Shown: positions 39,478 through 64,000 of the stretch, piece after piece
Layout: each line of letters starts with the position of its first letter
Numbering within the stretch: the stretch's first letter is position 1
Source: Yuukianura sp. NJ FZ-2021
Lineage: Eukaryota
Assembly (NCBI GenBank): GCA_046563655.1
Contig: CM102284.1
Coordinates: 2,976,001-3,040,000 of the forward strand
DNA: 64,000 nt
Reading direction: 5' to 3'
Notes under the pieces: generated by a model
What the model was told of the DNA's origin: nothing
Seen by the model: the letters and a program-made list of their open reading frames with translations, nothing else
The model's database searches: none
Program-made: the position numbers and the translations under genes

Positions 39478-42218
39478 TTACACATCATCTACATCTAGGC
39501 TTCGGGATATTGAATATAAAATTTTCAAAAAATTGTCAAGCCCGTCTGCGTAGTTTTTGTCAGTTGACACCGACTCAAAGACATGCGTAAAATCAACCAT
39601 TTTAACGCAAAACCACTCGGGACTTGCGTCAACATTGTGAACTTGTGCAGCATCGTAGATGACTAAAATAGAGCTTCCATAAAATGCAAATTTGGTTTGA
39701 GTTGTGAACCATTTCTGAATTTTCTGAACATGCTCAATGCATATTTCAACCAAATTTTTTCTATTACCAAAAAAGGAGTCAATTGCTCCACAAAGTGTCT
39801 CTGGTGTCAAACTCTTTCCAAACACCTTGTTTTTGTGTACCATTTTTCCATTTTCGAAGTACTGAATTCCAGTGAGACTTAGACCCAGCGTACTTCTCGT
39901 TCCAGCGTATTTGAGTCCAGATTTCCGCCTTTTTTCAATTGAGGTCAAGGGGTCACTCGTTTCTTTTCCAATTTTGATGTCCATGATGCAAGGCATTTGG
40001 AAATTGTGAACAAGATTTTGAAACAAAATGTAAGACTGGGTCCCAATTGTGGTTGTTCCATAATACCTCGGAATGAGTTCGCGTAACTGGATGACCTCAG
40101 GGTCAAAAGTTGAAGAATTCCACATAGCTTCGTAGAACTCAGCTTCACACGGACCTCGTCCGCCATCTTGGAACGGTTTCAATAGGTGCCCAGCACTGTG
40201 GCGTAGCAATGGAGCCGTTTCTTTGTGTCCGCCAACTTGGTTCACAAATGGAACAGGGAACCTTGCCGCCCTTTTTCCTTGCAGTAATTTCAAAACAAAG
40301 TCGGCTATAATTTCTCCGTGATTTTCCACTCCACCGTAACCTAAATAACATCATATAGAAACTCTCCGTGCAAGACAGAGCGTGTGTGTGTCTGTTAACT
40401 ATGTATTGTGTGTATGTACGTGTACAAAAAAATATGAACCGTGCGGACTTGCTTGGAAAAATGTTGAGATCCAAGATGGCCCACCGATTTGCATCCTTTT
40501 CAAATGCAAGGTCAATCCCAAATAGAAAAAGGTCAAGGGTTGATCCAATGCAATTTCCAAGTTGTTGGAGCGTAGACAAATTCAAATTTAAGTTGGCTTC
40601 ACATACGTCTACTTGTCTGCTAATATCTGCTACCCATGAAGGAGGCTTCGACACGTCTTTGCTGTAGAACTGAATTGGACTCTCTTTTAAATAAAAAAAA
40701 ATTTACTTTTAGTTAATTTTTGGCCAACGAAACAGGATTCAGGTATCCCCGGAGATGATCCCTGCCGGGTCACAGGTCAACTTTCTTCTTTTTACCATTC
40801 ATAACCATAGTGCGCAGCTTCTTCTTCTTTAAATTAATTTTAAGTTAACTAGATTCTTACCCTCAACTTTCAATAAATTTTTTATAGAGGGTCGACGAAC
40901 AACAAAGGGTTGTTGACCCACAAAGTAAACTTTGTAGAGTACGGCGTCATGGTTGACAAACGACTGAGCAACTCCAGGAAAAGGACAAACTCCCATCTGA
41001 TCCTCTCTGAATACCACAGTCATCTACATCAAATTTACATAAAATATATAATAATATGTAATATATACTTTGTTAATACACATAATATACATACACATGT
41101 ACAATTATATACGTGTTATATAATTCATTTAGTTAATACCTACTTCATCAAAGAAAAAAAGCACAATCTTACGCGATGCGTTTCCTTGTGTCCGTCAGAT
41201 ACCGTCGGTTTAAATACTGTTAAATAATACAGCTAAGTTTATAAGTTCACATAAAATCAATTATATAAAAAATTAATTTAAAATTTTATAAGTAATTTAA
41301 TTTTCAAATTTTCACATTAGTTTAATTTAATAATAATTTTTAAATTTAATTTGTACTTATTGGAAATGTGAGGCTCTTTTCCATGTCCCGTTGATCGACA
41401 ATCCTATCAAACGGAGGAACGTAGAATCCTTCTGTTGATTAACCCAACTTCATGTAAAATTTGTAAAGTCCCATTGGTTGCAGACTTGTAATTGAAATTT
41501 ATTTAAGTAACTTTTGAAATAATTTAAATATAATAAAGTATAATATCAAACATTAAATTAAGTTATTACCCCCAAGTGATGAAATGGCTTCTTGTAATAA
41601 GTTGTAGGCTTTGAACCTGTTAATTACTGCTCTACAATTTGCAAGTGAATTTATCATGACCACTTCAGGATGTTCCTTTGCGTACGCCTCTATTCGTCTA
41701 AGAATATTCTCAGCCTATGAATTTTTTTTTAAAAGTGGTATGTTAGGCTTTTGTTTTAGGGTTATAAATTATATCAAAATTTTTAAATCAAAAATATATA
41801 AAAGTGAAAATTGTAACTTGATTGTCGCCCATCTCTGCCAGGGCAGCGAGGTCAGTAACTTTGTGTAAAATTCCGTCAAATGGGCCCTGGGCCTCTAGGT
41901 CCCCTTTCAAGTCAATCTACGCATGTCAACAGTTTCAAAATGCAAGTTAATCAACTTGTCGTTTTTGGTTTTCAAATATTTGATAAATTTAATACGCCCG
42001 GGTTTCACCTCGATGAGTTGAATTGACAATCGCCTGAAATTTTATTCCAACTACACTTAAAAACTAATTATAATTTAATTAAGAATTTTGTATTAATTTT
42101 TTTTGGGAAATGGATTTCAAGATATGTACCTCAGTGCTTCTTTGACTCCGCCCAACTCCAAAACCTTGTCTTTTTTCTTATTTACCCAATAGCCTAAACG
42201 GAACGCTTCAATACTCAT
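39478..42218 (-). CDS. Predicted ITPK1-IPMK fusion: N-terminal ATP-grasp inositol-tetrakisphosphate 1-kinase plus C-terminal inositol polyphosphate multikinase
   Basis: ITPK1 exons: MSIEAFRLGYWVNKKK (ATG 42218), QGPFDGILHKVTD, AQSFVNHDAVLYKVY...RPSIKN, LFGID...ILDLNIFP. Final exon 40340-39478: (S)YGGVENHGEIIADFVLKLL, then the IPK motifs QVGGH, PCIMDIKIG, SSIL and MVDFTH in one frame. Confidence 0.82.
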
Positions 42219-42529
42219 TGTACCAATGACAGATTTACGAATTTTGTGAATTTAGATCCGATTTTTCACAATGATTCACTTTTCTAGAAAAAATAAAAAA
42301 ATTGTAGGTGTATAAATGTGAAGCTTTACATAATTTCGCTCAGGAATGTAGGTTGTAGAACTTGTTTGATAACCTCTCAAGTTGAGAGGTTATCCTCACA
42401 ACCAATTTTTTTTTGACGCAGAACTTGCAATACCAGCTATGGGGTCGACAAATATGTTCCTTGAATTGAAGAACCGGTTCTGTGGTGAATGCTGATCAGT
42501 AAGTATTTGTGAAATGTGTAAAATAATTA

Positions 42530-43678
42530 AATAAGTTGTGTTACACGTATTTTTTGATCGTTTCCAAATTTTGGGGGAATGAAATACCTTTTGAAAGAAA
42601 AATTTTGGTGAAAAAAAATTGACCCTAACGCAACCCGTTGCTGAGTTGTGAGAGGTCAAGGTCGCCATTTTGGAAATGTTCACCCGCGTGTATCTCCGAA
42701 GTTTCTTAACCGATTGAGGTCATCTTGGTGTCAAATGAAAGCCCTTAACTTGCTCCAGATGTTGATTTTTTCAAAAATTTGGTCAAGGGCCCATGGACCC
42801 TTATTTTTTTAAATAAAGGAACTTAGGGGTTTTCAACGTAGAATTTTAATCTTTTCGTTGTAATAACGTTGAAACAGCGAGACTTGACATAGTGGACCCT
42901 TAAGGGCCCCCTTATGACTTTAAGGGCCCCCTGAAATTTTACCCCATTTGCTCCCAAACAACGTTTAAACAAGTTTTTAGTGAAGCAGAAAAAATTTAAT
43001 GCCACTTTTTACTTCAAGGGCCCCCAAGGGACCCATTTATTTCTATCTAACAATGAACTGAAAATTCATGCTTCATATGGGTTCAATGTGATAAATATAA
43101 CTAGAAATTAATTACATTAACTTTTAGTATCTTCTGCTTTCAATTTTCAATTCATTGTTAGACAGAAATAAATGGGTCCCTTGGGGGCCCTTGAAGTAAA
43201 AAGTGGCATTAAATTTTTTCTGCTTCACTAAAAACTTGTTTAAACGTTGTTTGGGAGCAAATGGGGTAAAATTTCAGGGGGCCCTTAAAGTCATAAGGGG
43301 GCCCTTAAGGGTCCACTATGTCAAGTCTCGCTGTTTCAACGTTATTACAACGAAAAGATTAAAATTCTACGTTGAAAACCCCTAAGTTCCTTTATTTAAA
43401 AAAATAAGGGTCCATGGGCCCTTGACCAAATTTTTGAAAAAATCAACATCTGGAGCAAGTTAAGGGCTTTCATTTGACACCAAGATGACCTCAATCGGTT
43501 AAGAAACTTCGGAGATACACGCGGGTGAACATTTCCAAAATGGCGACCTTGACCTCTCACAACTCAGCAACGGGTTGCGTTAGGGTCAAATTTTTTTCAC
43601 CAAAATTTTTCTTTCAAAAGGTATTTCATTCCCCCAAAATTTGGAAACGATCAAAAAATACGTGTAACACAACTTATT
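42530..43678. mobile_element. ~1.15-kb foldback/palindromic element: ~535-bp near-identical inverted arms, ~75-bp spacer
   Basis: 42530-~43066 is the reverse complement of ~43142-43678. The ORF track shows mirrored peptides on opposite strands (identical MALNFFCF...; near-identical MNISKMAT...). Confidence 0.9.
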
Positions 43679-44390
43679 ATAATAGCGAAGCTATTATGAT
43701 AAAAGTGGTTTGTCTGTCTGTCTGTCTGTCCGTCTGTCTGTCTGTCCGTCTGTCTGTCTGTCTGTCTGTCCAGATTAATTATCTCAGAAACTACTGGTCC
43801 GATTTGATTCCGGTTTTCACCAGTGACCATGTCATGACCCGGGCTTGGTCACTATTGAATATGACCCCCGGGTGTCAACTCCTTCCGGGTCAAAGGTCAA
43901 GGTCAACCGGTTTCATCCCCGGTAACTCGGAAAATGACCTCTACAAAAGTTGTTCATCTCATCGAGGGGAACAACTTTTGTGTGTAATGTGTGACCCTAG
44001 GTCACCTCCTTCCGGGTCAAAATTGATTTCAAAGGTCATTTGTTTGTAATGCAAGTGTGGGTGCAAACAACTCTGCTTGTGAGACTGGAAAGGAAATTGG
44101 CATGGGAGTTGGTTCTCTGCTTAGCAAAAAATCTATTACGCAGTTCACATATACACTTTACACACTCATGCACTGTGTCCACCGGGTGTCACCTGTCACT
44201 TGCCGGGTGTCACGTGTCACCTCTCAGTTGCCGGGTGTCACCTGTCACGTCTCACCTGTCACCTGTCACGCCTCAGCTGTCACGTCTCACCTGTCACCTG
44301 TCACGCCTCAGCTGTCACGTCTCACCTGTCAACACCCCCTTGATTGAATTTTTGAAACTAAGAAGGGGGGTTGGGGGTTTGTTTAAATAA
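43679..44390. mobile_element. Probable non-autonomous Helentron/DINE-1-like repeat with (TCTG)n microsatellite and GTCAC-rich minisatellite
   Basis: 5' hairpin aatagc-gaa-gctatt, then (tctg/tccg)n at ~43712-43771 followed by attatctcagaaactactgg. Tandem tgtcac units at ~44185-44332; ccccct...aggggg near the end. Confidence 0.5.
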
Positions 44391-45268
44391 TTCAAGCGCC
44401 ATCTATTTACTGTCCCAGGTTTTGGTATCCGTTTCCAAACAGTTTTACTCACTCGAATTTGAATTTGACAGATTGGTTTGTTTGTTTCTACGCGGTCACA
44501 GGAACATGAGGGGATTTGATGATCACTGCTTTTTTTGAATTTCCGTTAATTAAATTAGAATTAACTCAAGTACAAGTAAGTAAGGTATTTTAGAATTAAA
44601 TTACATTTAATAAAAATGTTTAAATGTTGTCATCGGAAATCGTAGAGTCAAAATTAGTTTTAGAATTGGATGTTGATGTATGTATCACAGAAAATGAATG
44701 GCAGGTCCAACTTCACACAGTAGAATATGTGGTACATATTTTTTTCCTACTAGTTATTCCCCAACATTTTGCAGCAGTGGTGGAAACGAACGAGTAGGTC
44801 ACATGAGAATTGTTTTGGTGGTTTCAGGTCATTTCCCACGCTCCTAGACAGAGTTACGCCAATTCTGACAGGAATGTCAGCTAGCATTTCAGAGCTTTAG
44901 TCACGCCATTTCAAAATGATAGAAACTTGGAAGCAAAAAGTCATTTGTGTAGACTAATCCCGTGGAAATGCGTAAATTCTGCTTCCTTGCGCTAACGTAT
45001 GCTGAGCTTACCATTACCATTGCTTCATGAGCAGAGATTTGGATATGTGCACACTGCCTGTTGTTTAACTTACTTCAACCGATGCGATGTAATGAGAGGA
45101 GAGACAGCTGATTGTATTTTGTCAACATTCAATGCAGTACTCCTACTCAGCAGTTTTGCTTTTCATCGGGGAAATCCCACTTTGAACTTGCGATATTGTA
45201 TCAAAATACACATTTATCGATCAACTAGGTCGGCTCGAACATCGTTTGTGTACGCGATATTTATTAAA

Positions 45269-47012
45269 ATGAACTCAAATGCAAGAGTTGCGAAACTATT
45301 ACTGGAGCTACTGAAGAGGAACAATTCTTGTGCCGACTGTGGGTCACTAGGTAATTTTTTGTTTGTAATTTGCCTAAATTTATGGTATTGGCTGGCTACG
45401 GTATAGCTGGCAACCAAGTTGTTTCAGAAGTAGCCGGAGTTTAGTGTGAACCTCACACTGTGACGTGAGCAGTCATCGTTCAGCGCTTTGCTTTCATCGG
45501 AGCGGAAGTTAATGTTGTCCTTCTCTAACCTAACCTAAGCTCCGGAAAGTGTTGGAAGAATGCGTTCTCACTCTCAGGGATTATATGCTTTCGGCGTTAG
45601 ATTAAAAAAATGTTTATTCGTTGTATTGGTTTAATTATTTCTAGATGTCACTCATGCCAGTTACAATATCGGCGTCTTCCTATGCAGCACTTGCGCTGCT
45701 ATACACAACACTATCGGGACGCACATTTCAAAAGTGAAGCATCTTAATCTTGACCATTGGGAAGAAAGTCAGGTGGAAAGATTAAAACAAGTAGGAAATG
45801 TCGTGGCGAAACAGCAGTACGAGCAAAAAGTGCCAAGCTGGTTTCCACGACCAAAAGAGTGAGTTTATTATTATTATTATTAACACTATATGCTTTTTAA
45901 CCTGGGATGTGGAATGAGTAAATGACCTTGTTTTAATACTCTCTCTGTCTACCTATTTGATCTCTAGGAACCTCCTGTTGCTGCAACATTGGATTTACTC
46001 CAAGTATGTGCGACTCGAATTCTCAAGCACGAATCCAACATACCTAAACGGTGTTCTGGATGGCTTTTTGATGAAGAAAATGCGAGAGGATGGACGATAT
46101 TTTCCACGTCGATTCATCCTAGAAAACTCCACAATTTGTTACTTTGTCGAAAACAAAACTCCAAAGGCCGTCGTGAAATTAACAGACGCAAACATAAGCC
46201 TTTGTCCGCCGAAGCTCGGGAAGGACTCGAGTCTGCAAATTGATCATTTGACAAACGGTAGCACAAGACATGTGTATGTGTACCATAATGACGGGAACGT
46301 GATCTGTGAGTGGTACTATGCATTCTTAGCCGGGAAAGCAGCAATTCAGGAGGCCAGTTTACATTTATTAAATCAATAGTCTTATGTTTAGTTATGTTAG
46401 TGCAAGACTTTTATTTTAATGTGTTTTCTATCTAATTACTATAGCAAAATGAGCCAATCGAAATTGAGGGTTACTTATGGAAGGCAGGCCCCTCTCCGAG
46501 TTATGCTCATCGGAAACGCTGGTTCACTTTAGCGGGTAATTTATTTAACTACGAATATTACGACTATACATGGATTGTAATTCCTTACGTAATTTTGACT
46601 GGAATAACATAGGAAGAAAATTAATGTATCACACCGACATTTTGGATGCCTATCCGAAAGGTGAGGTGTTCCTGGGCCGTGTTCCAGAATACAGAGTGTC
46701 TATGGGTGGTTTTGGAGATGACAAGGACAACAGACTGGCGTTCACTGTCAACACTCCTAGTAGGACATTCATTTTATCCACGGAGAATCGAGCAGAACGT
46801 GATCGCTGGATAGAGAAGTTGACACGGGTAGTCAACCGGGAAATGACTGCAAAAGATTTCCAGCGTACGTTAAACATTCGTAGTTACTGATAGTAACTTT
46901 TCGCTAATGTGCTAACCGTTGTGAATTGTTTGTCTCTATCATCTAATTTGTTGCAGTTTCTGAGATGCTGGTTCGAAAGAGAAATTCAAAGAAGATTTCC
47001 ATTTTGAAATAA
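45269..47012 (+). CDS. ADAP1: ArfGAP with dual PH domains (ADAP1/centaurin-alpha-like), multi-exon
   Basis: Zinc finger CADC...CSTC, HISKVK.L.LD.W, WIYSKY. PH1 GFLMKKMREDGRYFPRRFIL; PH2 GYLWKAGP...RKRWFTL...DAYPKGEVFLG...TPSRTFIL...RDRWIEKL. Confidence 0.88.
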
Positions 47013-48114: not shown

Positions 48115-48811
48115 AATAGTCCACTACTATAAAATACGTATATATTTCGAAAGAAACTAATGAGTAATGATGTTAAATAAATCCGTGAAAAAAAAATCCT
48201 CACTCCGTCTCGGTTACGATTTTTAGCAACTCAGTTTCTACTTGCTATTATAGTTCTTGAAAAAAAATTCATAACAACCCTTTTGTTTGATGTTGTGAAG
48301 AGGAGAACTTTAGCGACTAATGTTTTACTCTCAATTGCAGCAGTCTCGAGTTCAACGTTCTACGACATGAAAACGTTTTTAGACTTTCAAATTTTTACTT
48401 TCCGCAAATCTAACAGTAAGTGAACGCTTAGTTCAAAAACATGTAGAGCGGGGTACTCTAAGGATAAAATAATTGTATATATAACCTAAGCAATAACATT
48501 TTTAAATTGGAATCGGAATTAGATGTATCGAATTCTGAAATAAAAAGACGGTGAAATCATTATTTTTTCTCCTTTAGGAAACAAAATACGGTGTTTAAGT
48601 TATAGAATGAAACGCTGATGAGTGTGTAGCATTTATGCAGATATTTAGTATTAAGGAAACGCTTCCTACCGCAAAATTGGCTACGAAGGCACCTTAAACT
48701 TAACCATTAAGACTATCCGTGTAATTAAGAAAGTCATTCCTGCTTTTTTCAATTACGCTTCTAGCCTTAAGTTTCCATGTGTTCTTTGATCTGTTAGAAA
48801 ATCCTATTTAA

Positions 48812-51800
48812 CTAGAATTCGAAACCTTCACTCTGCATAGCTCCGCTTGGATCAAATTGAAATCCACCCGAAGTTGAGTCCGGAAGTAAATTAGGATCTT
48901 CCTCTTGCTAAAAATTTCAAAAAAAAAACATGTAATAAATAATAAAAATGCTAATAACAATAACACCGAGGCGTCTTGTCTTCTCACCTCATCGGAAAAG
49001 TAATTTTCCAGGATGTCGTATGCAATTTTGTAGATGTCAATATTTTCATGGTTCTGGAGAGCTTCAATCTTGTCCAGGCCTTCGCACTCTTCAATCATGG
49101 TGCAGACTCGCTCCAACTCATCTCCCGTCGCCATTTTAAGGATATTATGTATTCCATCCAGTACAACTTGAATGACCTTAAACCAACAAAAATAATAAAT
49201 TAATCATTGATCAGTGATAAAACTTTTGCGGATAAATGCAAAAGTCGTTCTCTAGGTCAATAAAAACAACTTCCCTAAAAACAAGAACCGGTTTTGGGTA
49301 ACACAAATATTAGATGAACGGAGAGCGAGAATTGAGTAAATGGGCGAAACTCCGTACTCCGACCCATTAGTATCGCATAGTGAAGTCAGTATACGATAGG
49401 ATAAATAAAGATTACCTGAGAATCCTTGCAACTGAGTAGTTTGCAGAATGGTGCAATCACCCGAGCCCTTACAAGATATATTACTTGCTCCTTATTTCCG
49501 CTAATCGTCATATTGCTTACAGCCCAAGCAGCTTCCTTCTGTGTTTGAAATTCACCCTAAGAATAAAAGCAAACAAAGAATTCAAAATTCATCTTATACG
49601 TCAACTTATACACCTTAAATGATAGGTCTCTCCGTCATACACAGTAAGCCCGATTCATTTATTGTTAAACGTACCTTCTCTAAATGATTGATAATCAGAG
49701 GAATCAGACCGGCATCAATAACTGCCTGAACTTGAGCATGGTTCCCAGCCGTGACGTTGGATAAGAACCAAACCGCTTCCTGTAATGTTATAATTGTTGG
49801 TTATATATGAAGCAACACGTTGTCAGACGCCCGAACTAGCTTCGATTACTAAAGTTACATAAAAAACATAGAGTAGGTATATAGACGTCTATAACCTTGC
49901 AAATTTTCTCCTTGGGGTGGTTAAGAAGTCCATGGAAGTGGGATAGTGCGTCGCAATTCAAAACTGCTTGAGTCTGCTCATCAGTCCCAGTTACAATGTT
50001 TCCAACTGCTCGAACCGCTGCCGTCTGAACTTTCACTTCCCGATGAGACAGCAATGCAACCAGCTTAGGCAACACTCCACTGTCAATTACCATTTGGATT
50101 TGCTCGTTCCCTCCATCAGTCAAATAACTCAAAGCCCAAACTGTGTCCACCAGCACCTGAAATATTTATAATTAGTATTTTACAAAAATCCACCAGAATC
50201 CCTTAAAACTGCTCCGGAGACAACAATAACAGAGGTAACAGAGCTTACACTAGTGTCGTTATGGTGGACCAGAACGTTCAGCGCAGGTAAAATGTCCCTC
50301 AGAGTCTGAGCTGGTGGCGGAGGGTCTTTGTTACGACACAAGTTGACAATTACCCATGTCACATTCCGTAGAAACGTGATGGGTATCTCAGGTTGAATAA
50401 ACTTAAGAAGTGGAGTCACCATTCCCAAGTTGATCACAAAATCACGCAGTACGGGACCATCCCCAATTATATTCCCTGAGAAACAAAAACCGTATTAAAC
50501 TGACATCATCGAGTTACGTCATCATGAGAAAGAGAAAGATGGTAAGCACGCAGCCGACTTACCCAACGCCCATACAGCCTGTTCACAGACATTTTGATGT
50601 GGCGAACTCAGAAGTCTCAGGAAAAGAGGAACCGCTCCAGCTTGTACAACGGCATTTGTTTGTTGCGAAGAGCCAGATGCAATGTTTGTAAGCGCCCATG
50701 CTGCTTCAAACTGCAGCGCAGGACTAATGATCAAAAATTGGTGAACAACAGGTAAAGAAGCCTTCAAGTTTGAGTGAAGAAATAAACGACACGGGAGAAG
50801 GAATTGGACTACTTACTTTGTTGTTTCTTGGAGTAGATTAACTAAAACGGGTAAAATTCCGCACTCAATCAGTGGATCAATCGGAGGATTCCTATCCGAC
50901 GAAAGTAGTTTACGAACAGAAGTCACTGCTGGATATTGAATGGCTTCGTCTGGTGAGCTTGCCTGCTGGACTAAAAGGCTGAGGGTTGCTGGTGATATCT
51001 AAAAGGATGCAATGAATAACCAGTGTTAGTAATTAAAAGAACTCCATAGCCAATAAAATTCGAAACAATACTTGTTATGAATGACACGATGCACTTATAA
51101 CACGAGAATGTGGGTCGTGTCACATGACTCGTGTGTGTACAGTGCACATCTCATCTTATAAGATACGGAGTGTCACTTCATGCTCAAAGTTCAACTTCAG
51201 CCTGGACATAGCCATCAAAATAGTTTCTCAATCCAGCAGAAAAGAGAAAACCGATACCGAAAAGTAAGAAAAGAACGGGTTTAATTGCCAAATTCAACAA
51301 AAATCAGGAATTTTACGACGTGCCATTATTGAAATTCTGTCGAAGTTTGAAGAAATAAATTGAATATAATTGAAATGAGCAAGGTTGTGCAAGGTTGGGC
51401 CAAGATTGTTTGAATTACTAGTGGACAAGCATTAGCTGTAACTCAGAGTCTGAGTTAAAGATGTGTCACACATCATGTGTGGGACTTGGAAAAGCCTCGC
51501 CTAGCCTTTTAACACTCCGTCCAATCCTCACGAGATGAACTTCATCGCTGCTGATGGCATCTCGCTTCAGTTAACGTTGAGCGGGTTTTGGCAGTTTAAT
51601 TCTACTGTTGTACTAACCATTTTGTCCGAATCGTCTTCAGGCACGTCAACCACTGGTACATTTCTCCGTTTCAGCAACGTTTCGTCACGTTTGTTCTTGC
51701 GAAGTTCCACCGTAACCTCGTTCCTTCGTCGCCTCATTTCCTGTAAACGACGACACAAAGTTTTGAGTGAAACGCCAGCAATTATATTTATTATCTAACG

Positions 51801-53526: not shown

Positions 53527-53626
53527 NNNNNNNNNNNNNNNNNNNNNNNNNNNNNNNNNNNNNNNNNNNNNNNNNNNNNNNNNNNNNNNNNNNNNNNNNN
53601 NNNNNNNNNNNNNNNNNNNNNNNNNN
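53527..53626. other. Assembly gap (100 N)
   Basis: Run of N. Confidence 1.
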
Positions 53627-54824
53627 AAAGCCGGTGTAATCCGAGTACTGTTCTCAGAGCTGTTGAACGGGAACAGTACCCCAAAGGAGGGCTTTCGTCT
53701 TCCCTGGTCCATATTCAGACTGTTGGAATTGGTATGCGTCAAATTGATTCCCGTATGCTTTCACTTCAGCATCTCCAATTTCTGGATCTATCCAACAATC
53801 GGATTACTTCGATTGAAAGTGTAAGTGTTAAAATCGTCTTCACCTTTACTGTTTCTATTTAGGTATAATTCTTTTCATTCTTCAATGTTATTACTTTAGC
53901 TCAAGTTACTAAATTCGCAACTGGCTCATTTGGTACTTGATGGGAATCCGCTCCAAACCATCTCCAAAGACTTGTTTTTGGCTCCAGGATTGTCTTCGCT
54001 GAGTTTTCTTTCCCTCAAGGATACTCAAGTAAGTACTTGACGAGTTTAAAAGTGAAATTATTATACCTTGTTCCCCATCATTTCTCTTCTATTGATTTTT
54101 GTAACCATTTAGCTGAAGGTCATTCCACGCTCCATTCTGAAATTGGAAAAACTGTTGAGACTGTACCTTAACCAAAATCAAATTCAAATTCTGCCTTACA
54201 ACATGAACTCATTGCTGCGTCTGAAGTAAGTGGAGCTTAAAAATTTATGTCTGCTTAACGAGTAATTTCTGGCTTGTTTCCCAGATATCTGGATCTTCAA
54301 GACAACTTGTTGTCATTCGTCCCATCTCCCATCTTGTTTCTCCGTTTATTGAAGCTAGATCTTTCCAAAAATCAATTTGTGCGACCTGGTCCAGCCCTGC
54401 TGGATGAGCCAGATCGTAGAGTTGGAACTGATCCGTTTCCTACTCTGTTGGAGTTGGCAGCCGAAGCCATTAAAACACACAACGCATTAATGTGAGTACG
54501 CAATAATAGGATTTAAGTTGTCTTCGAATTCGTTTTTACATAATAGGCTTTGATTTAATCAGGATTTTACGCAAAAGACATAACAAATTGATTTCGGCCA
54601 CCCCGACGGAAATTCCAGCCTGTTTGTATGACTTTCTGGAGGAGATGAAGCGCTGTTCAGGATGTGCTCGCATGGTGGGACGCTATGTGGTTCAAAATGC
54701 AGCAATTAACTTACGTGGAGTTGCCCAGGAGCTAACGGTAGATACAAATCCCGTCTTAGCAAAGAAAGTCACGTGCCTTCAATGTTTGGAAATTGGCGCT
54801 GCAATGCGCATGTTTTTCTACTAG
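53627..54824 (+). CDS. LRR1: Leucine-rich repeat protein 1 (LRR1/PPIL5-like CRL2 substrate receptor), 5' part missing at the gap
   Basis: QYPKGGLSSSLVHIQTVGIGMRQIDSRMLSLQHLQFLDLSNNRI, further LRR exons, BC-box-like FPTLLELAAEAI and a Cys-rich tail (IPACL..F....KRCSGC...TCLQC). Confidence 0.75.
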
Positions 54825-54974: not shown

Positions 54975-56915
54975 TCATTGCTTGATACCGCTGCGATGAC
55001 CCACCATTAAGTTGATGACAGAGTCAATGATGACATCTTGCATGATTCGTGGGAAAGACTCCTTGGTTAGTGTAAAGGAATGACCGATTTTCCATGTCAG
55101 TGATCGATATGAGCGGAACATGGCTCTATCCAACGGAGTCAAATGCATACCCATCATTGACCTTGGGATGGTTTTGTACATTTGGGAGTTGAGGGTGGAG
55201 TCGACGGACTGTTTAATAGCAAAGTGGAGCGTGATTGCAGCAAAGATCCCCGTGGAGATGGCTGTCACAATTACCACGACGGAGATATCTTTGTACAAAC
55301 TTAGTGTGGCATAGATGGCCATGATGACGAGGAACTCTGCACATGGAATAACGCATGGCAGAATGGTGGTTGTCACGAGTTCACGAGCCACGGCATGTTG
55401 AACTTGTTGTTGCCGGTAGTTCAGATGTAGTCGCCATTTTGAGAGTTGCGAGAGAGTGTGATTCGGTGGTGCGTTGAGCCAAGCCTTGTAGCAGTGTCTT
55501 TGCCAACTAGATGTGCAGCTTGTGTGGATAAGGATGAGGAAAGTGCAAAGGAGAACAGCGTTCCAGTCCAACGCTGCAACAACGATCATGTACCACGCAG
55601 CGGCAGTATTTTTCCATACGGCGTCGTAACGAATGAGTGGAAAATAAGTCCTGTCCAAGCCATGTATAAGAACGCGACGGAGTTTGGCGGAGTTTGGATG
55701 GCGGGAACCGAAAATTTGAACGGTTGACTTTCCGCTGAGGTGACAAAAGTGTTCACATCTGGTCTTGTTTATTCTCATCCTTTCACTCATTCTTTACTTG
55801 ACTTTAGTTAATTGTTTTAACAATTAACGTCAATAATGAATCCTTTAAACCCTACTAGAGTGAGGTTTAGTGTGCAGCAGCGAGCCTTTATAGTCTAAAC
55901 TTACCTCACACACACACACAGATTGTAATTTTTAATCTTTAATCTATTAGGAGTACCGCACAACTAATTGGCTTCATCAGACCACACAATCCAGTGAGAC
56001 AAAGACAAAGACTCCGAAGGCTCGCTGCTGCACACTAAAGCTCACTCTAGTAGGGTTTAAAGGATTCATTATTGACGTTAATTGTTAAAACAATTAACTA
56101 AAGTCAAGTAAAAGAATGAGTGAAAGGATGAGAATAAACAAGACCAGATGTGAACACTTTTGTCACCTCAGCGGAAAGTCAACCGTTCAAATTTTCGATT
56201 CCCGCCATCCAAACTCCGCCCAACTCCGTCGCGTTCTTATACATGGCTTGGACAGGACTTATTTTCCACTCTAAGTCGGAACCCCATACCGTTGTAGTGG
56301 AGAGTGACAGCAAAATCGCAGGAAATCCAAAGCAAATGGACACTACTGCACAAACCAAAAGCATACGCATGATCCAACCAGACCGATGGACTACGTCGTC
56401 TCCACTGGACGCTGAGTAGGACTCTGCAAGAAAACAGGTTTCATGAACAATAGAATAGATTTTTCAAAATATTATCGATGAATGAGATATTAAAATTCCT
56501 TATTTGACTGTTTCAGAAATACAAAAAACTTACGAGTGATGCTGCACAGTTTGATATATGAGTTGAATACTTTTGGCATGTCTTCTCCGTCGCGGAACAC
56601 GAAAAACTGGATAGAAGAAGAGAGGACGAAGGTGATGGACAAGAAGGTAAATGGTACCCACTCCCCTGGCCTGGGGTCAAAAGTGTGATGCATGTACGCA
56701 TGTATCATGTACAGCACCGTAATGGCATTCAGTGCCAGCACGCCCATCATCGCGATTTTTATAACCAAACGGTTCTGGTGCCAACCTGAAAGCGAACCGG
56801 CTCGAACAAATTGCCCTGTCGCCTTGTTCCAAATTGCTGGATAGACGCAGAAGAAATTGGCAAATTGTAGCACCCAAGCGACAGGTCGCATGGCGTATGG
56901 AGTTGGGTTGGGCAT
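54975..56915 (-). pseudogene. Multi-pass membrane chemoreceptor-like (GR/OR-type 7TM) gene, ~400 aa when reconstructed, interrupted by a palindromic insertion
   Basis: Exon 1 56915-~56533 (MPNPTPYAMRP..., hydrophobic helices); exon 2 from ~56424 to GSDL at 56272, resuming IRYDAVW at 55634 to the stop at 54975. Multiple TM segments; the family call rests on size and topology only. Confidence 0.6.
55635..56271. mobile_element. 637-bp element with ~254-bp near-perfect terminal inverted repeats, no TSD
   Basis: 55635-55888 is the reverse complement of 56017-56271 (GAGTGGAAAATAAG...CTTATTTTCCACTC). The spacer contains (CA)n. Confidence 0.88.
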
Positions 56916-57068
56916 CCTGACAACGAATTCTCGAATTGGAGTGAGGAAAGTTTCGAAAAAATTGGGATATTTCTAGGGCGGCGTTGCTTTAAACCATCGT
57001 CATTGTCCAAATTAATGGAATTCTATAGACGGAGCATGCAATTACAGCGAAAACAAGACATGGACACA

Positions 57069-57418
57069 AAACACATCGGCATAAAAGACATCGACAATTG
57101 AAACATAGTACCAAAACAAAAGACATCTCTTCCCTCGGCAAAACCATTCTGCTGCACCAGCAATAGTGGTTATGTATGTGTGTAAAGTGTAAAGGTCCAT
57201 TGCATTGTCTAAATAAGTCTTACTAGACTGACGCAGCAATACTGATGATGTGTGCTTAGCTAAGCATTCTGCGCCACGCCGAAGGCGCAGCAATTGGTTT
57301 GATTAAGCGCACAACGTCTGCAGGGACTATTGTCTCAGCTAGGCTTAGGAATTTAAACAAAAATATTTTGTTTTGATATTTTGTTTCATTGTCGATGTCT
57401 TTTTCGTCGATGTGTTTG
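57069..57418. repeat. Degenerate inverted repeat (~55-bp arms), likely an old MITE
   Basis: aaacacatcggcataaaagacatcgacaattgaaacatagtaccaaaacaaaa versus reverse complement aaacacatcgacgaaaaagacatcgacaatgaaacaaaatatcaaaacaaaa. Confidence 0.65.
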
Positions 57419-57777
57419 CATTGTTGATATTTTTTCCGATGTATTGGCATGAACCCCGTATAGATAATTACGTATAAGGCATCGGCGTAGTCATGAAATA
57501 TAAATAAGTTCATTTTTAAAACCTTCCCAACTATGTCCACTTTGAAACCTACTTGAAACCCCCGTCACTTTGCCAAAAAAAAAACTCTAACGCTTTGGTT
57601 TGTCATGGGTATATTGAATTTATTATAAACCCAAAACCACCGTATCCAAACTAAAATATAACGAGGGCGTGGAAATAATAATACAGTATTTAATGTTTTC
57701 CTAACCATTTTCCGAAAAGCAAATTGAACTTTTTTTTTCGTGGCTTTTTGAATTATTTCCTTTTCAAAATGCTGAAA

Positions 57778-60700
57778 CTATCTCTTTTTGTCAAGTTCGG
57801 GTTCGGGTTCATGAAATTCGGATGTGGCGCTACCGATGATAGGATTCACCTGTGTATCCTTGCAGGATTCGTTTGCTATTCCTCCACGTTTGTGCCTACC
57901 ACCATTTGCCGACATTTGAACCAATTGTTCCAAAGTGTAGCTTCGAATTTCCGCAGCAGAGAGTTCTAGGTCAAAGTCTGTTTTGAGCATTTGTGTCACC
58001 TCGATGGAAATGATAGAGTCCAATCCAAGTTCCACCAGCTTGTCACTTATGTTCAACTTGGCTGCAGAAGAGTGGCCCAGGATATGCGCAATTCGCTCAA
58101 TCACGTTTACTTCTTCTGGTTTAGCATCAGTTTCAAAACAGCCTTCTAAATTTACAGGTTTCCGACAAAAAGTTACTGGTGGGCCAGGCAGAGTCAGTAG
58201 AATATCCAGGTCTTCCAGCACCGAGCGAATACTTTGAATTCCAGCGCCATGGAACTCTGTGCGCTCAAATTCTTTGTTAAATTGCGAATGCCATGCCCCA
58301 ACTTCCCCAATTGGTCCCCATTGAATTGCTCTTGCCGGAAATCCATCAAGCATACGCCGCTCCACAAGTCGCTCGGCTCCTGAATTAGCAAAAGCGTAAT
58401 TTCCTTGTCCATCAAACCCAACAGCCGCGGACATGCTTGAAAAAATTACAAAGTGGTCCAACTCTGGGCACAACTTTCGGCTAAGGTCATCAAAATTTTG
58501 GGTCATTGTAATTTTGGGGTCAATGACCTTTTGAAAGGCTTCGGCCGTTTGGTTTCTTGTTAAATTTACTTCCAGTTGTAAAGTGAGATTAAAAATTCCA
58601 CCAATGGGAGCCATGTCCATTGCTTCTTTCAAAATTTGATGAGCCTCGTCCAAGTAAACCCCGTTTTTGAAAAGTACGCGGACCTCAACTCCACGCTCTT
58701 TCCAAATTTTCAAATAGCTGCGGGCGTAGGGCGTAAGTCGGTTGCTTCTGGAAGTGACCAGGATGTGATGTGCATTGCGCAGAGTCATCCAGTTGATGAG
58801 TTCAAGCCCAACGCCTCCAAGACCACCTAGAACAATGTAACTCTTCTTTGGCGAGAATTGAACCATTTTTTCTACGTTTGTGGAAGTCTCCGACTGAGTA
58901 CGCATTGCTTCCGAGTGAACATAACATCCGAGTTGCCCCGAGTCGTCAAATACGTTGAACACCAAATCCTGATCCAGAATTTTCTGGAGCATTTCATCTG
59001 GTTTTCCAAAGTCCAGTTGCATCGGTCGCTTTGAAAAAATGGATCGAACGTTCTGACTGTATGGTTCCTTTCGAATGCAAAGAGTGAGGCCAAGGAGACC
59101 GCATTCCCTAGTCTGATCTCCCATCGAAACCAAATAGAGCCGTGGACAAGGACTGCCGTCTTGCAGCAACTTTTCTTGACGCCGCATTGCGACTGCCAAT
59201 GAATCGACCCAAGTCACTGAACTGTTGACGCAAATGACCTCTACATCTTTGGTTTCAAGATTTGTATCCTTGAGAAAATTTAAAAAAAAAATTTCGAATT
59301 TTTTAATTTTAGAATTTAATTTTAGATTTTGATGTTAGTTTGCTTACTTTTCTTATAAGGAAAAGGTCATGGTCAGGCGAAGATTTTTGAGCGATGAAGT
59401 GATAACCATAGGTGCAGGTTTCTAGCAATATTTTTAGTTGTGCTTCACTGCATGTTCCGAGTGGACTTTTGAGTATCAAAAACCCGCCAGTTTTTAGAAT
59501 TGAAAGAAACTGCGGAACAAATTCCTTATCATCCATAACTATCAAATCGAAAGATTTCCCGCATTTCCATTCCTCCAATCCAACGTTTTGGAGATTTTGG
59601 GTTTTGACCATGTTTCGCCTAAAAGTTTCAGCCAAGTCACTGCTTAAACCATCCACGGCCAATGCGTAGTCAACCTGCCAAAATAAAATCATTATTCTAA
59701 AATGTTGGAAAAATTTTCAAAAGTTTAAAAATGTAAACTTACATCAGGTTTTGCAAAATGAGTTCGAATCACGTTGACCATATCGAGTGTTTCTTCTGAA
59801 CGAACTCCTTGACTACATAACTCCAGAATCTTGGGCGGGGTTCTGGTGACTGAAGCAAGATTCTCCATGACAATCGCTACAAATGGGAGCAGGGTCGATG
59901 ATTTGTCGTTTCCCCAAGCCTGTGCCTCTGAATTCTTGAACGGGTAAAACGCATGATGTGAAATTACCGAAGGCAAATCCTGACTCCTTCCGGTACTCAT
60001 TTTGGTCATTTCAAGTCCTTCGATTTCTATACCTCTGGATTTGATAACATTCCCTTCGGAATCGTAATTGACGATGACACTGTGTGGATCACGTCCTATT
60101 GGCGGACTTGACAAATTTTCCAAAAAGTGTATTGGATGAATCGAAATTTTGGAAATGCCGGTGGGAACGCAGAGGTCAGTTGGGTAGTCCTTCGCACTGT
60201 AAATTCTAAAAGTGGTTTGAAACATTGCGTCAATGAAGGTGACCCAATTTGAGTTGAAGTGAAGCAAGAAATGTAACCCAGTGAGGTCAGCTTTTTGAAT
60301 TCCTTTGAAATCTCCAGTGTATTGGTAGCTGAGGAATCGCAGGCGTTTATAGACGTCATCACTCGTCAATGTCGTTTCATAATTTGACAGTGCCTGAGTT
60401 CCAACTGTTTCCATTTCCCGCCACTTCTGTTCTGCCGAATCTTTTACCAACCTATGAATTTTGCCTGTGCAGAGTAGATTATCGTTTTCTGTGACTTCGA
60501 AATTCCCGCTAACTTTCAAAATGTTAACGTTAAATTTCATGACTTCTAAAAAAAATAGAAAGGTTTGAAACAAAATTCATAATATATGTATGAACTGGTT
60601 TGTTCATACATTGAAAAAAAAAAACATTCAATCTACCTGAGTTTTTCAGAATTGTCGCGCGCAAAAATTTGACGTCCTCGAATATCACAGGCGTATTTTC

Positions 60701-62939
60701 CGGATCCGATTGATTGGAAGCTGCAAAATGACGCCACACTAATGACAAATATCCCGCTGCAGGGTAAACAATTTTTCCATCAAGTATGTGACCCGCCAAA
60801 TAGGAATCTTCGTTCCGGGCCAGGCAAACTTCAAATGAGCCGCCATTTCCTCCATAATCAGTACTGTACACTGGAACTTTCCAGGAAGCTGAGTGGTCCC
60901 AGTCTACAAGGTGGCCAAGGAGAGGAGTGTTGCCTGGCAGCGGCATATCAATTGCCTTGCCAATCAAATTGTTCAAGTCAAAGTTAATTCCCGCCACAAA
61001 AATCTTGCCTAAAGCATGCGTTAACGTCATCATGGCGTCTGCATTTCTTGCTTGAAGAGGAATCACTATAGCGTCCTTCGTTCCTTTTTGTATTAAACCG
61101 CGTAATAAACCGCTAGGGCCAATTTCGATTACGACCGCACCCTGAGGAATACGCTGCAGAGCTTCGGTAAAAAGCACTGGAGCGACAAAGTTATTGTGCA
61201 AGTATTCCGGGCCAAACATTTTGGCACTATTTTGTTCCGTGTTTTCAGGAATTGAAGTGCTAATCCAATTGGAAGACCTCGCTCGTGGACGAATCAGTGG
61301 GCGCAAAATTTGAACAAACTTATTTGCCGCTGGAGTGACCCAGTCCGAATGAAAGGCTAAGCCGCAGGAATTGACGTCTTTCACTTCGATGCCCTGAGAC
61401 TCCAAAGTTGCTTTGACTTGCGCAATAAGTTCAGTTGGACCAGAAATTGTTGTGGAATTTGGACCATTGTGGCATGCAACAACTACACCGTCGGGACAAA
61501 CGGTAGCCGTTTCTGTAGCTCCCAGAGGTACAACTGCCATTCCAAAGGAACCCACTTGACTTGCGCAGAGTTCTTCACATGGTTGGCCACGCAGGTAGAT
61601 TGACACGATTGTTTCTTCTAGAGTCATGCACCCGTCGACATAAGCACAGAGTGTTTCTCCCATGGAGTGACCCAGCATTCCGTCAGGCTTAATTCCAAGC
61701 TTGCGCAGAATATCGACGAGACCAATCTGAGTAACTCCGATGGAAGTGAATGTGTTTGTGGGAGATTCGAAAACTGCTGGGTCGTCCGACATGTAAATAT
61801 TTCTGAGATCGTAGTTGTATTTCAGAAGGGCATTACAGCATTTGTCAAAAGCAGCTTCAAAAGCGGGAATTTGAATCAAACTGCGTCCCATTCCAATCCA
61901 CTGACTTCCCATTCCGTTGAGGATGAACCAAACCGGAGGAGGTTTTTCCGTCGTCGAAGCATCTCGAATGTCTCTGACTTCCGTACCGACGATTCCGAAT
62001 CCTCGAAATTTACATTTTATGGAATTTCTATTGATTTCGTTGAGTAGGTACATTTGACTTCTGTCTCTACCTTCGATTACCTTAAAAAACAGAGGTAAAA
62101 ATTTTAACATTAAAAATTAACATTAGAGAAACAAGCATGAAAATTTACTTCATTCAAACTTTTCTCCACGCCATTCCGTGTTCGTCCAGAAAAAGTGACC
62201 AAGTCATGCAACTGAATTTGGCGAAAGTGAGTTTCACTATTTTGCAGATCTTGAAAACAATGACGAAGGAATGGTTTCAAAATGACATGCGTATTGACAC
62301 CACCGAATCCAAAACAATTGATACCAATGTCGCCGATGTTCCATGCGCGATTTTTATCCACAATCTAAAATATTTGAAATAATAATGATTATTAAAAGTG
62401 ATCTCAATTAATTATTTTTGAATATTGTAACTATTAATTTTGTTAAATTGATCACTGAGTTACTTCAACTGTGCCATTCCTGACGTTTTTCATGTTGAAG
62501 TGTGGACGACCGTAGTGGATGTTTCCAGGAATAATGCTATGTTGAATTATTCCAACTATTTTAGCAATAGAGCAGAGTCCAGAAGCTCCCTCGGCATGTC
62601 CCATGTTGCTCTTCACACTCCCAATGAGCAATGGACTCGTACGCTCTCTGTTCAAAACAAAATGGCGACTGATGGCTTTGACCTCTTCAGGGTCACCAGC
62701 AGGCGTTCCTGTTCCGTGAGCTTCCACATAGGTGACCTCTGCCGGGTCAACTCCGGCTTCTAGATACACTTCCTCCATTAACTTCTGTTGCATCGTAGCA
62801 GAGGGGTTGAAAATGCCTTTGTCCTTGTACCCATCCGTGTTGCAACCAATCCCAACAATGGATGCATAAGCTTTCTTGGCATCACACTTTTTCTGCAAGT
62901 AGATTGAAGCTACGGCTTCTGCTCGAACGTATCCAAGAC
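57778..62939 (-). CDS. Type I fatty-acid-synthase-like/PKS enzyme, 3' part (KS C-half-MAT-DH-pseudoMT-KR-ACP); 5' exons presumably beyond the right edge
   Basis: KS: GYVRAEA, EAHGTGT, GSVKSNMGHAEGASG, NCFGFGG. MAT: GMGSQW, GHSMG, AFHS. DH: LAGHILDGKIVYP. KR: GGLGGVG, FSS, GQGNYAFANS. ACP: LGLDSI. Stop at 57778. Confidence 0.92.
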
Positions 62940-64000
62940 CTGGAGAAAAAATCTTGACATTAGCGAAACGGGTTTGTTCCATTTATGGTGAAAATCCGAA
63001 CGAACTCGAACTAACAGTGACCATGACCTTGAATAGCTGCATGCAAATCATTTATAAAAATAAATCCAAAACAGTTCTTTTTGAATTCTTTTATTAGTTG
63101 AAGTTGTCGACCTGTCTAAAAATTTCGCTCTCCAGATCTATGTTATGTTGGTGCGACAATACTACGTTGAGCGCCACCGAAAAGAGTACACCCCTATTTT
63201 GATTTCCATAAAGACGAGTTGAAAATTATGTAAACATGAGGGGAAAGTTAGCTCAAACTTTGAAACTTCAGCTAACATATTTTTTGAAGGAATTTTTGCA
63301 AATTGCGTTATTTCGATCGCTTTTCCTCCACAGTTGCGAAATTAAACAAAGTACTGATTTTTGGGTGTACTCTTTTCACTGGCGCTCACGGTGCAATGAA
63401 CTCGTTGCTGGCAAAGAGAATGTACAAAACATTACGAGTGAACTTTGTATTACGCAATTACTTCGTAAAAACTTGCACTTTAGAGAAAGGAACAACTTAC
63501 CTAGGTTTATACCAAATACCAACAGAGATAAAGTCACCTAACCTAATAAGTGCTGAGCAAAGAATGCTTCATGATAGTACTAGACGGTTGACCGATAAAA
63601 ATCGTGTGAAAGTTTGCTCAAAGCTTAAAATATTTTTCAAATTTTTTCCTTTCTACGAAGTCTTACAACTGTGTAATTATTACGCTTATATGATGTAATA
63701 TGCGATGTTACAGTCATTGGCAACAATTTGGTCAGATGTAAGAGCCTTAGCGACAATTAGCAGCATTAGAATTGAAAATTCATGTGTTAGGTAGGGTTAT
63801 GTAAGGCAAGGTTAACCTAACCAAAAATTTATAATTGTTTTTGGTCCTCCAGGCTATTTATCAACACTTGTGATACCCAGAATGTGTGTTGAAATTATAT
63901 GCAAATTGTTTTGGTCGTTATTAAAAGCTAGGCTGTACACAGGGGGTGGCAAAAATGCCTTAGCGACCAAAACCGATTCTTGAGTTGTTTACAATTTCAC

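Follow-up and report, generated by a model that had tools for sequence, protein, structure and literature searches.

Within a 64-kb stretch of DNA, hereafter the window, we identified a minus-strand gene of invertebrate type (57778-62939) that, in the reading we prefer at a probability of roughly 0.55, encodes a spliced, selectively maintained, iterative type I synthase derived from animal fatty acid synthase (FAS), from which the enoyl reductase domain (ER) has been excised and the thioesterase (TE) lost, and whose product is an unsaturated polyketide-type chain. The gene model, the junction at which the ER is missing, the relatives of the gene and the pattern of sequence variation bear on this reading, as do three competing explanations.

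Gene model and the ER-less junction

The gene comprises 1584 open codons in six exons, all of whose borders are GT-AG with consistent phases, separated by five introns of 68-99 nt each. Read from the exons, the domain order is KS C-terminal half, linker, AT, DH, a reduced pseudo-methyltransferase, pseudo-KR, KR, ACP, and a tail ending in a stop, and Pfam searches of the exon model matched KS_C, KAsynt_C_assoc, AT, DH, pseudo-KR, KR and PP-binding, with neither an ER nor a TE among the families. Exon A (62464-62939) opens at a phase-1 acceptor, ttttttctccag directly preceding GT, and carries the C-terminal half of the KS with its EAHGTGT and KSNMGH motifs (Ketoacyl-synt_C, E = 6.1e-38); it aligns with residues 242-395 of EcPKS1 and with human and pig FAS from approximately residue 221. 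Exon B (62149-62364; GT-AG, phase 0) encodes the end of the KS and the KS-AT linker (KAsynt_C_assoc, E = 9e-16). The linker continues into exon C (60637-62080), which also contains the AT (approximately 60983-61930; Acyl_transf_1, E = 2.9e-57) and the N-terminal part of the DH with HILDGKIVYP (PKS_DH_N, E = 2.7e-06), and matches residues 450-928 of human FAS with E = 6e-99. The remaining DH (SYQYTGDF, DAMFQ; PS-DH, E = 4.5e-06) and the start of the pseudo-methyltransferase lie in exon D (59743-60545), which is backed by tblastn to FAS references and whose phase fits exon C. Exon E (59348-59674) encodes a 109-residue remnant of the pseudo-methyltransferase that is co-linear with the stretch between DH and pseudo-KR in relatives, and no Pfam family matched it at E<=0.01.

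Exon F contains the remaining domains. The pseudo-KR, or structural KR subdomain (58912-59268; FAS_pseudo-KR, E = 5.4e-15), aligns with residues 1420-1525 of pig FAS, and the catalytic KR (58306-58857; KR, E = 8.6e-37), with its GGLGGVG NADPH motif and its Lys, Ser, Tyr and Asn, aligns with pig FAS from residue 1882 onward. The ACP (57916-58104; PP-binding, E = 5.3e-07) bears the LGLDS phosphopantetheine site, and its alignment with the ACP of pig FAS extends to residue 2194. An earlier note on this DNA had described the KS histidines, MAT GHS, DH His, KR Tyr and ACP Ser as intact, and each of these motifs was found when the exons were aligned with human and pig FAS and EcPKS1: the KS His (EAHGTGT, KSNMGH), the AT GHSMGE, Arg of YLRGQ and AFHS, the DH H-x3-G-x4-P and D-x3-Q, the KR GGLGGVG with Lys, Ser, Tyr and Asn, and the ACP LGLDS.

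The pseudo-KR ends in DLVFNVFDDSGQLGCYVH (58968-58915, minus strand), which is followed by 19 residues, SEAMRTQSETSTNVEKMVQ (58858-58914), at the position that the whole ER occupies in FAS, and then by FSPKKSYIVLGGLGGVG, all within a single frame (57778-59334) that is uninterrupted. Aligned to pig FAS (2vz8), residues 15-127 of this frame correspond to 1420-1525 and residues 139-455 to 1882-2194, such that pig FAS 1526-1881 (~356 residues, the ER) is replaced by ~11 residues. In a MAFFT alignment with five full-length FAS proteins, the gene was short of 345-365 ER residues and 270-305 TE residues. A Pfam domain scan of the kind that the earlier note had proposed recognised the pseudo-KR, KR and PP-binding families in frame 57778-59334 and gave no match to any ER or TE family. 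No trace of either domain emerged anywhere in the window when it was searched by tblastn with six full-length FAS proteins at E<=1e-3, and tblastn with 21 KS-N, ER and TE segments found no such sequence in it even at E<=10. A second DNA contig, from organism A, crosses the junction with three substitutions and zero gaps. Contigs from organism B (run X3), ~93-94% identical, span much of the gene, with 58742-58966 missing from the listed pieces. The claim that the ER is cleanly absent within one exon is therefore upheld and, as judged by alignment, the excision of the ER falls precisely where the structural KR half meets the catalytic one.

An AlphaFold2 model of exon F, built from a 31-row alignment, was confident over the KR (residues ~135-365, pLDDT mostly >85) and fair over the ACP, and gave pLDDT <50 over the pseudo-KR and junction (residues 1-130), as few alignment rows reach there.

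As regards an origin in an animal genome, as against a symbiont or horizontal transfer, the genes neighbouring the FAS-like gene likewise contain spliceosomal introns. A nesprin-like gene with CH and spectrin repeats adjoins it, and the nearest Atlas clusters of a 7TM-like neighbour are mostly arthropod, a weak lead. An IPK neighbour has one weak protist match, and an Rfam search of the window returned no match.

Relatives of the gene and signs of selection

Named matches, among those listed, were mostly 'fatty acid synthase'-type proteins, and among matches to solved structures FAS was far stronger than PKS. In trees that included four bacterial and fungal PKS outgroups and no named animal PKS reference, the gene was nested in the animal FAS clade with support of 100 (FastTree, 65 rows; IQ-TREE quick, 37 rows), in agreement with its earlier assignment to the animal FAS and FAS-like PKS radiation, the branch leading to it being long (1.21 and 1.61). 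A tree of the KR-ACP region (49 rows, 331 columns) united the gene with P0242 and P0243, also with support of 100. These two metagenome fragments are its closest relatives, at 48-49% identity, and each still encodes the ER C-terminus and the beginning of a TE; loss of ER and TE is therefore specific to the lineage of the gene, whose nearest ER- and TE-bearing relatives are known only from environmental contigs. P0121 and P0122 were rejected as close relatives despite their top scores, being models with two tandem AT copies.

Uncharacterised database proteins that lack both ER and TE were found elsewhere, with no label beyond 'fatty acid synthase': P0164 from Cacopsylla melanoneura (1723 aa), which bears that label, P0380 from Cyamophila willieti (partial), and the unnamed P0354, P0387, P0384 and P0304 (1844-2010 aa). 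They are 29-33% identical to the gene and co-linear with it from the KS C-terminal half to the ACP, with no insert of ER or TE size, and their lengths fit the ~1830-1850 aa expected for the gene once the KS N-terminal half is included. The layout is thus not unique to the gene, and the existence of these co-linear proteins of 1723-2010 aa shows that it is viable. The psyllid pair groups with Adelges inside the insects, while P0354, P0387, P0384 and P0304 form a separate lineage (support 99-100), their separation from the gene resting on SH-aLRT supports. Since the ER-less groups fall in separate clades, the losses look independent, and the independent appearance of the layout in psyllids and in the unnamed clade suggests that it has evolved recurrently, hidden by 'fatty acid synthase' annotations. 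An ER-deleted animal FAS-like enzyme is not described in the literature searched, and the supplementary architecture tables of Lin et al. 2024 may list cases. More tentatively, and at odds well short of even, the gene may represent an independent conversion of an animal FAS into a minimal polyene-type PKS, by clean ER excision and TE loss, in a lineage apart from the mollusc and arthropod sequences in our trees.

Variation among DNA contigs was scored at 38 displayed exonic sites out of about 600, several of which share contigs. Third codon positions hold 26 of these 38 variants (binomial p = 1e-5). Synonymous changes account for 21 of the 38, among them 16 of the 22 AT-exon variants and three of the four in the KS exon. 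This preference for third positions argues for purifying selection on the gene, as far as the displayed sites can be read. In the pseudo-KR and junction, every one of the eight displayed variants changes the amino acid, and this region may therefore be weakly constrained. The two displayed coding indels, of 3 and 6 nt, lie in the C-terminal tail region of other haplotypes; indels displayed upstream of 62939 measure 1, 2 and 8 nt, a contrast that points the same way as the third-position bias.

Proposed function and competing explanations

In the mechanism that we propose, the AT would charge the ACP with starter and extender units, and the KS would condense them; the KR would then use NADPH to reduce the beta-keto group, and dehydration by the DH would leave a 2-enoyl thioester. 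Its double bond, for want of an ER in cis, would pass into the next round, yielding an unsaturated chain of polyketide type, conjugated or partly reduced, in place of a saturated fatty acid. Such an outcome has precedent, as KR and DH activity without an ER gives enoyl or polyene products in ER-less KS-AT-DH-KR-ACP bacterial modules and in fungal PKSs with a dead ER. FAS-type KS domains, however, generally select for saturated chains, a point against this scheme, in which the KS would have to accept enoyl intermediates. Release without a TE would have to proceed by self-cyclisation, as in the pyrone-forming EcPKS1 and EcPKS2, or through a separate hydrolase, reductase or acyltransferase. We infer the iterative action, the nature of the product and the route of release from the domain content: because the domains that saturate double bonds and release the product have been lost, the product is probably an unsaturated polyketide-like lipid and not an ordinary fat. 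The polyene product, the role as pigment, defence or signal compound, and the need for a trans-acting release enzyme, all put forward in the earlier note, are likewise inferences.

The missing activities could instead be supplied in trans. An intact enzyme might work with a separately encoded ER, and perhaps TE, in the manner of LovB and LovC, making a saturated or mostly saturated product such as a specialised fatty acid or hydrocarbon precursor. The LovB precedent itself (cited in the sections of PMC11831141 drawn on here) and the association of arthropod FAS-like paralogues with cuticular hydrocarbons and other unusual lipids (in those of PMC10764717) lend this idea some appeal, and a partner encoded outside the window is compatible with all of the window data. 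Nonetheless, we consider it unlikely, as no MDR-type ER or alpha/beta-hydrolase gene was found within the 64 kb, no trans ER for animal FAS-type enzymes was found in the literature searched, and LovB retains a structural ER0 for its partner whereas the gene lacks the whole domain.

The 5' end of the gene raises a second alternative. The N-terminal half of the KS (~220-250 residues, including the catalytic Cys) is absent from 62940-64000, the last 1061 nt of the window. This stretch upstream of exon A is non-coding, a presumed intron with no KS-N match; it contains two high-copy repeats (63164-63377 and 63806-64000) over which contig words are 10-30 times deeper than in the flanking sequence, and DNA contigs differ across it by indels of 1, 2 and 8 nt. 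An ATG at 62982 was rejected as the start of the protein, being ruled out by a 1-nt indel at 62945 in other haplotypes, and a half-length KS would probably fail to fold. The gene could thus be a 5'-truncated or recently inactivated copy, incapable of condensation, in which rearrangement or a transposon upstream of 62939 removed the KS N-terminal half. The absence of KS-N sequence and the two repeats are what such an event would leave, and to place the missing half beyond the window implies an intron over ten times the length of any of the five known. We nevertheless judge truncation improbable: all 1584 codons are open across six exons with every motif intact, the skew of displayed variants to third positions and synonymous changes includes the KS exon, and the strong phase-1 acceptor of exon A requires an upstream exon. 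Moreover, the window boundary is an arbitrary cut and the contig continues past it. The exons of the KS N-terminal half are predicted to lie upstream, beyond the window end, which would give a protein of ~1830-1850 aa.

At the 3' end, 41 residues follow the ACP before a TAG stop (57778-57780), the C-terminal tail segment (57778-57915) spanning about 45 codons and including no TE, and the TE segments remained unmatched across the window, bearing out the earlier claim that a TE is absent. The flank beyond (57619-57694, minus strand) contains putative polyadenylation signals identified by pattern search (ATTAAA from 57694, AATAAA from 57624). That the model is incomplete, with a CAG/gtgaat donor in the tail (57850/57849) splicing to a distant TE or reductive-release exon, is very improbable, for although a GT donor-like site is present and alternative termination domains occur in some arthropod animal FAS-like PKSs (AFPKs) (according to the parts of PMC10764717 cited here), the downstream TE exon is unsupported by any TE-like sequence in the 64 kb, including in a search relaxed to E<=10 that used the TE starts of the closest relatives, both polyadenylation signals follow the stop, and the same-strand 7TM-like gene begins within about 800 nt.

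Comparison with known synthases

Should the synthase that we favour be active, assembly and iteration of an animal FAS modifying region would not depend on the ER:ER' dimer contacts kept in FAS and in the solved AFPKs. A selected FAS derivative without an ER would then be a natural test of the need for the dead-ER scaffold, which is structural and dimerising in two solved AFPKs. Animal FAS-like PKSs were recognised only recently as a source of animal natural products, and almost none has been characterised; if our reading is true, an unsaturated polyketide still to be discovered (pigment, defence or signal) would be indicated in an invertebrate group that has received little study. The compact gene would also be a candidate for making polyene-type compounds in heterologous hosts.

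Animal FAS is the best sequence match to the gene (AT-DH, E about 1e-98; KR-ACP, E = 2.4e-76) and shares its domain order, pseudo-ME and pseudo-KR. However, animal FAS has an ER (about 350 aa) and a TE (about 280 aa), whereas the gene has neither and therefore cannot synthesize and release palmitate unaided. Fungal PKSs of the LovB type and bacterial ER-less modules follow the same reductive logic, with KR halves joined directly, yet they are outgroups in our trees and match the gene much more weakly (E 1e-16 to 1e-21). LovB, a highly reducing iterative PKS, is cited in the sections of PMC11831141 used here. The parrot MuPKS, responsible for psittacofulvins, is a vertebrate iterative type I PKS that makes polyenes (as outlined in parts of PMC10764717 and PMC11739604) and was placed by Lin et al., in the text cited here, in an animal PKS clade outside the FAS/AFPK clade; the iterative action and polyene product predicted for the gene would parallel it.

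Among characterised enzymes, a parallel is offered by EcPKS1 and EcPKS2, AFPKs from the sea slug Elysia (PDB 9cq1, 9ctk), with which the gene is predicted to share an animal FAS scaffold, KS, AT, DH and KR domains, and an ACP end without a TE. The KS C-terminal half matches EcPKS1 (E = 1.1e-38) and FAS (E = 4.6e-38) equally well, and the KR-ACP region matches EcPKS1 with E = 3e-58. In EcPKS1 and EcPKS2, the polyenes are attributed to the dead ER and pyrone release to the ACP end (sections of PMC11831141). Neither those enzymes nor the gene would carry out enoyl reduction in cis, the ER being inactive there and absent here. The AT selectivity of AFPKs is stated to be unpredictable (passages of PMC10515154), and, in the portions of PMC10764717 cited here, AFPKs are reported only from molluscs and arthropods, with arthropod AFPKs said to retain a TE; the gene groups with neither in our trees. 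EcPKS1 and EcPKS2 retain a folded, inactive ER0 with dimer contacts in the modifying region (sections of PMC11831141), whereas the gene has no ER at all. Collectively, the gene is best read as AFPK-like, differing from the characterised AFPKs, which keep an inactive ER.

Exon model and the ER-less junction

FAS-type domains were found in stop-to-stop frames on the minus strand between 57778 and 62982, and sequence reading combined with frame joining resolved the synthase gene (57778-62939) into six exons: A (62939-62464), B (62364-62149), C (62080-60637), D (60545-59743), E (59674-59348) and F (59268-57778). The five introns, of 99, 68, 91, 68 and 79 nt, all have GT-AG borders and agree in phase, and the joined exons comprise 1584 codons that are open throughout. 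Pfam matches on this strand comprised Ketoacyl-synt_C (E 6.1e-38), KAsynt_C_assoc (E 9e-16), Acyl_transf_1 (E 2.9e-57), PKS_DH_N and PS-DH (E ~1e-6), FAS_pseudo-KR (E 5.4e-15), KR (E 8.6e-37) and PP-binding (E 5.3e-07). No ER or TE family appeared in the Pfam scan of these frames, and a 135-aa frame at 59309-59716 had no Pfam match. The motifs that the earlier note had listed as intact were recovered, in register with the catalytic residues in human FAS, pig FAS and EcPKS1, a sea slug (Elysia) enzyme.

The same note had described an ER cleanly missing from a single exon and no TE, and its junction coordinates proved exact: DLVFNVFDDSGQLGCYVH at 58968-58915 is followed by 19 residues and then by FSPKKSYIVLGGLGGVG, all within exon F. 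When exon F was aligned to the pig FAS structure (2vz8), residues 15-127 corresponded to 1420-1525 and residues 139-455 to 1882-2194; thus approximately 356 FAS residues, the ER, are represented by approximately 11 in the synthase. MAFFT alignment with five full-length FAS proteins placed the segments absent from the model at the first 220-253 residues, at the ER junction (345-365 residues) and past the ACP (270-305 residues). A tblastn search of the whole window with six full-length FAS proteins (E<=1e-3) gave matches confined to the KS C-half, AT, DH, pseudo-KR and KR-ACP. When 21 KS-N, ER and TE segments, among them the end of the ER and the start of the TE from the nearest relatives, were searched at E<=10, only scattered noise was returned across the 64 kb, the best hit (E 0.024) lying on the opposite strand at 37.8 kb. 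As neither search gave an ER or TE match, the ER is not concealed in an intron and there is no downstream TE exon.

We favour, with a probability of roughly 0.55, the reading that this is a functional FAS-derived iterative synthase, which would condense, ketoreduce and dehydrate while omitting enoyl reduction, and whose product, an unsaturated polyketide-type chain, would leave the enzyme with no TE involved.

The 5' end and sequence variation

The acceptor opening exon A is strong (ttttttctccag before the border, GT after it) and of phase 1, and the exon begins at a position corresponding to FAS residue ~221. In the 1061 nt from exon A to the window end the KS N-half was not found, which counts towards a rival reading in which the gene is a 5'-truncated or inactivated, dying copy; we regard this as unlikely. 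Two repeats of high copy number (63164-63377 and 63806-64000), presumably transposon-derived, occupy part of the same 1061 nt just upstream of the KS exon, and this kilobase is most simply read as an intron expanded by repeats, the exons for the KS N-half lying past the arbitrary window cut. Word depth of the DNA contigs at these two repeats is 10-30x that of the sequence on either side, along with numerous divergent copies and with loose ends. Haplotypes differ by 1-, 2- and 8-nt indels upstream of exon A; an in-frame ATG at 62982 is disfavoured as a start by the 1-nt indel at 62945.

The contigs compared came from organism A (three runs of one sample) and organism B, and yielded approximately 600 variant sites. 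Among the 40 sites listed, a chosen subset from few contigs, 38 are exonic, and 26 of these 38 fall at codon position 3 (p = 1e-5), while 21 are synonymous when each variant is taken singly. The synonymous share of the listed sites varies by region: AT exon, 16 of 22; KS exon, 3 of 4; DH exon, 2 of 4; pseudo-KR and junction linker, 0 of 8. The two coding indels listed are 3 and 6 nt long, and a second organism A contig runs ungapped across the ER-less junction, differing there by three substitutions. These patterns are suggestive of purifying selection on the catalytic domains, with a loosely constrained linker.

Organism A contigs over 57600-64000 (runs X1, X2 and X4) occur in near-equal numbers in the identity classes >=99%, 95-99%, 90-95% and <90% (108/105/108/105 in X1), and over 59374-59695 one contig of a pair is 100% and the other ~86% identical. 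The organism A sample must hold a number of diverged haplotypes, paralogues or related species.

Neighbouring genes and repeats

Half of the window is occupied by a giant nesprin/ANC-1/MSP300-like gene (2-32088, minus) that continues past the window start. Its exons are very long, the largest reaching 1254 codons, and it encodes a CH domain (30209-30805) together with repeats of the spectrin and of the Nesprin-1 or Anc-1 type. Ordinary housekeeping neighbours follow: a GFO/IDH/MocA oxidoreductase (36280-37091, minus), a phosphomannomutase (38295-39282, plus), an ArfGAP/PH-domain protein (45000-46900, plus) and an importin-alpha with Arm repeats (48808-51800, minus). An enoyl reductase acting in trans would also account for a synthase of this composition, but none of these four is an obvious MDR-type reductase or thioesterase partner, and we consider such an arrangement improbable. 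That a 3' exon carrying a TE or other release domain was missed is highly improbable given that the window contains no TE match.

When 5.8 billion proteins were searched with a word index, an inositol polyphosphate kinase exon (39478-40350, minus; Pfam IPK E 4e-37) had a single relative, a protist transcript with 27% identity, which fits an organism that protein databases cover poorly. A foldback-type inverted repeat at 42526-43683 (1168 nt, centre ~43105) is 95.9% identical to its own reverse complement; its arms carry near-identical short ORFs (42396-42719, minus; 43489-44049, plus), and low-complexity repeats extend beyond it to ~44350. A 100-N assembly gap (53527-53626) adjoins a plus-strand LRR-containing gene (~53800-54824). 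Directly downstream of the synthase lies a 7TM-like multi-pass membrane gene (54975-56972, minus) that matches no Pfam family at a cut-off as loose as E<=1. The ESM Atlas clusters nearest to it (score 0.95-0.96) consist of unnamed hypothetical proteins, for the most part from arthropods, a weak pointer, and the sole one, to the phylum of the source organism. An inverted repeat (55635-56271; 647 nt, 87.8% self-complementary) separates the two large frames of the 7TM-like gene, and a smaller inverted pair is found at 57069-57121 and 57366-57417.

Relatives and comparison with AFPKs

Word-indexed searches matched 181 proteins to the KR-ACP exon among 8000 scored and 677 to the AT exon among 5718 scored (E<=0.001); the hits, 35-43% identical and none closer, were FAS-type proteins of arthropods, molluscs and vertebrates. 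An exhaustive representative search gave 23,973 proteins at E<=0.001, and among the best 150, which were listed, were two closer fragments from JGI metagenome contigs (P0242 and P0243; 48-49% identity over KR-ACP), both with a C-terminal ER end ahead of the KR and a TE start past the ACP. Some of the 150 match pseudo-KR, KR and ACP in one stretch. The database proteins P0354/P0387, P0384, P0304 and P0164 (from the psyllid Cacopsylla melanoneura) are co-linear with the model over the whole span between KS C-half and ACP at 29-33% identity, and their alignment with it revealed no additional segment as large as an ER or a TE.

With PKSs of bacteria and fungi as outgroups, the synthase gene falls inside the animal FAS clade (support 100; 1454 columns shared with the model). 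FastTree (65 rows) placed it in a basal polytomy and IQ-TREE under a site-heterogeneous model (37 rows) among arthropod-type sequences, the latter lacking strong support; its long branch (1.21 and 1.61, respectively) makes its placement within the clade unsure. In a KR-ACP tree (49 rows, 331 columns) it forms a clade with P0242 and P0243 (support 100), with similar branch lengths (0.73 versus 0.67 and 0.58), such that ER and TE loss in the synthase postdates the split from ER- and TE-bearing relatives. The ER-less clade of the P0354/P0387/P0384/P0304 type stands apart (support 99) and the psyllid ER-less pair lies beside Adelges within insects; from these sequences, the loss looks to have been independent of that in other ER-less lineages.

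In Lin et al. 2024 (PMC10764717), AFPKs (animal FAS-like PKSs) are reported only from molluscs and arthropods, with mollusc clades 1-3 lacking a TE and arthropod AFPKs retaining it. We found no animal enzyme of this ER-deleted kind described in the literature searched, and the supplements of Lin et al. may list some. According to Schubert et al. 2025 (PMC11831141), EcPKS1/2 keep an ordered, inactive ER0 that provides ER0:ER0' and DH:ER0' dimer contacts; their polyene is explained by the dead ER, and pyrone release by the ACP terminus. The synthase gene would resemble AFPKs in its mode of working, as predicted from sequence; however, in EcPKS1/2 the ER is present but inactive, whereas here the domain is wholly gone.
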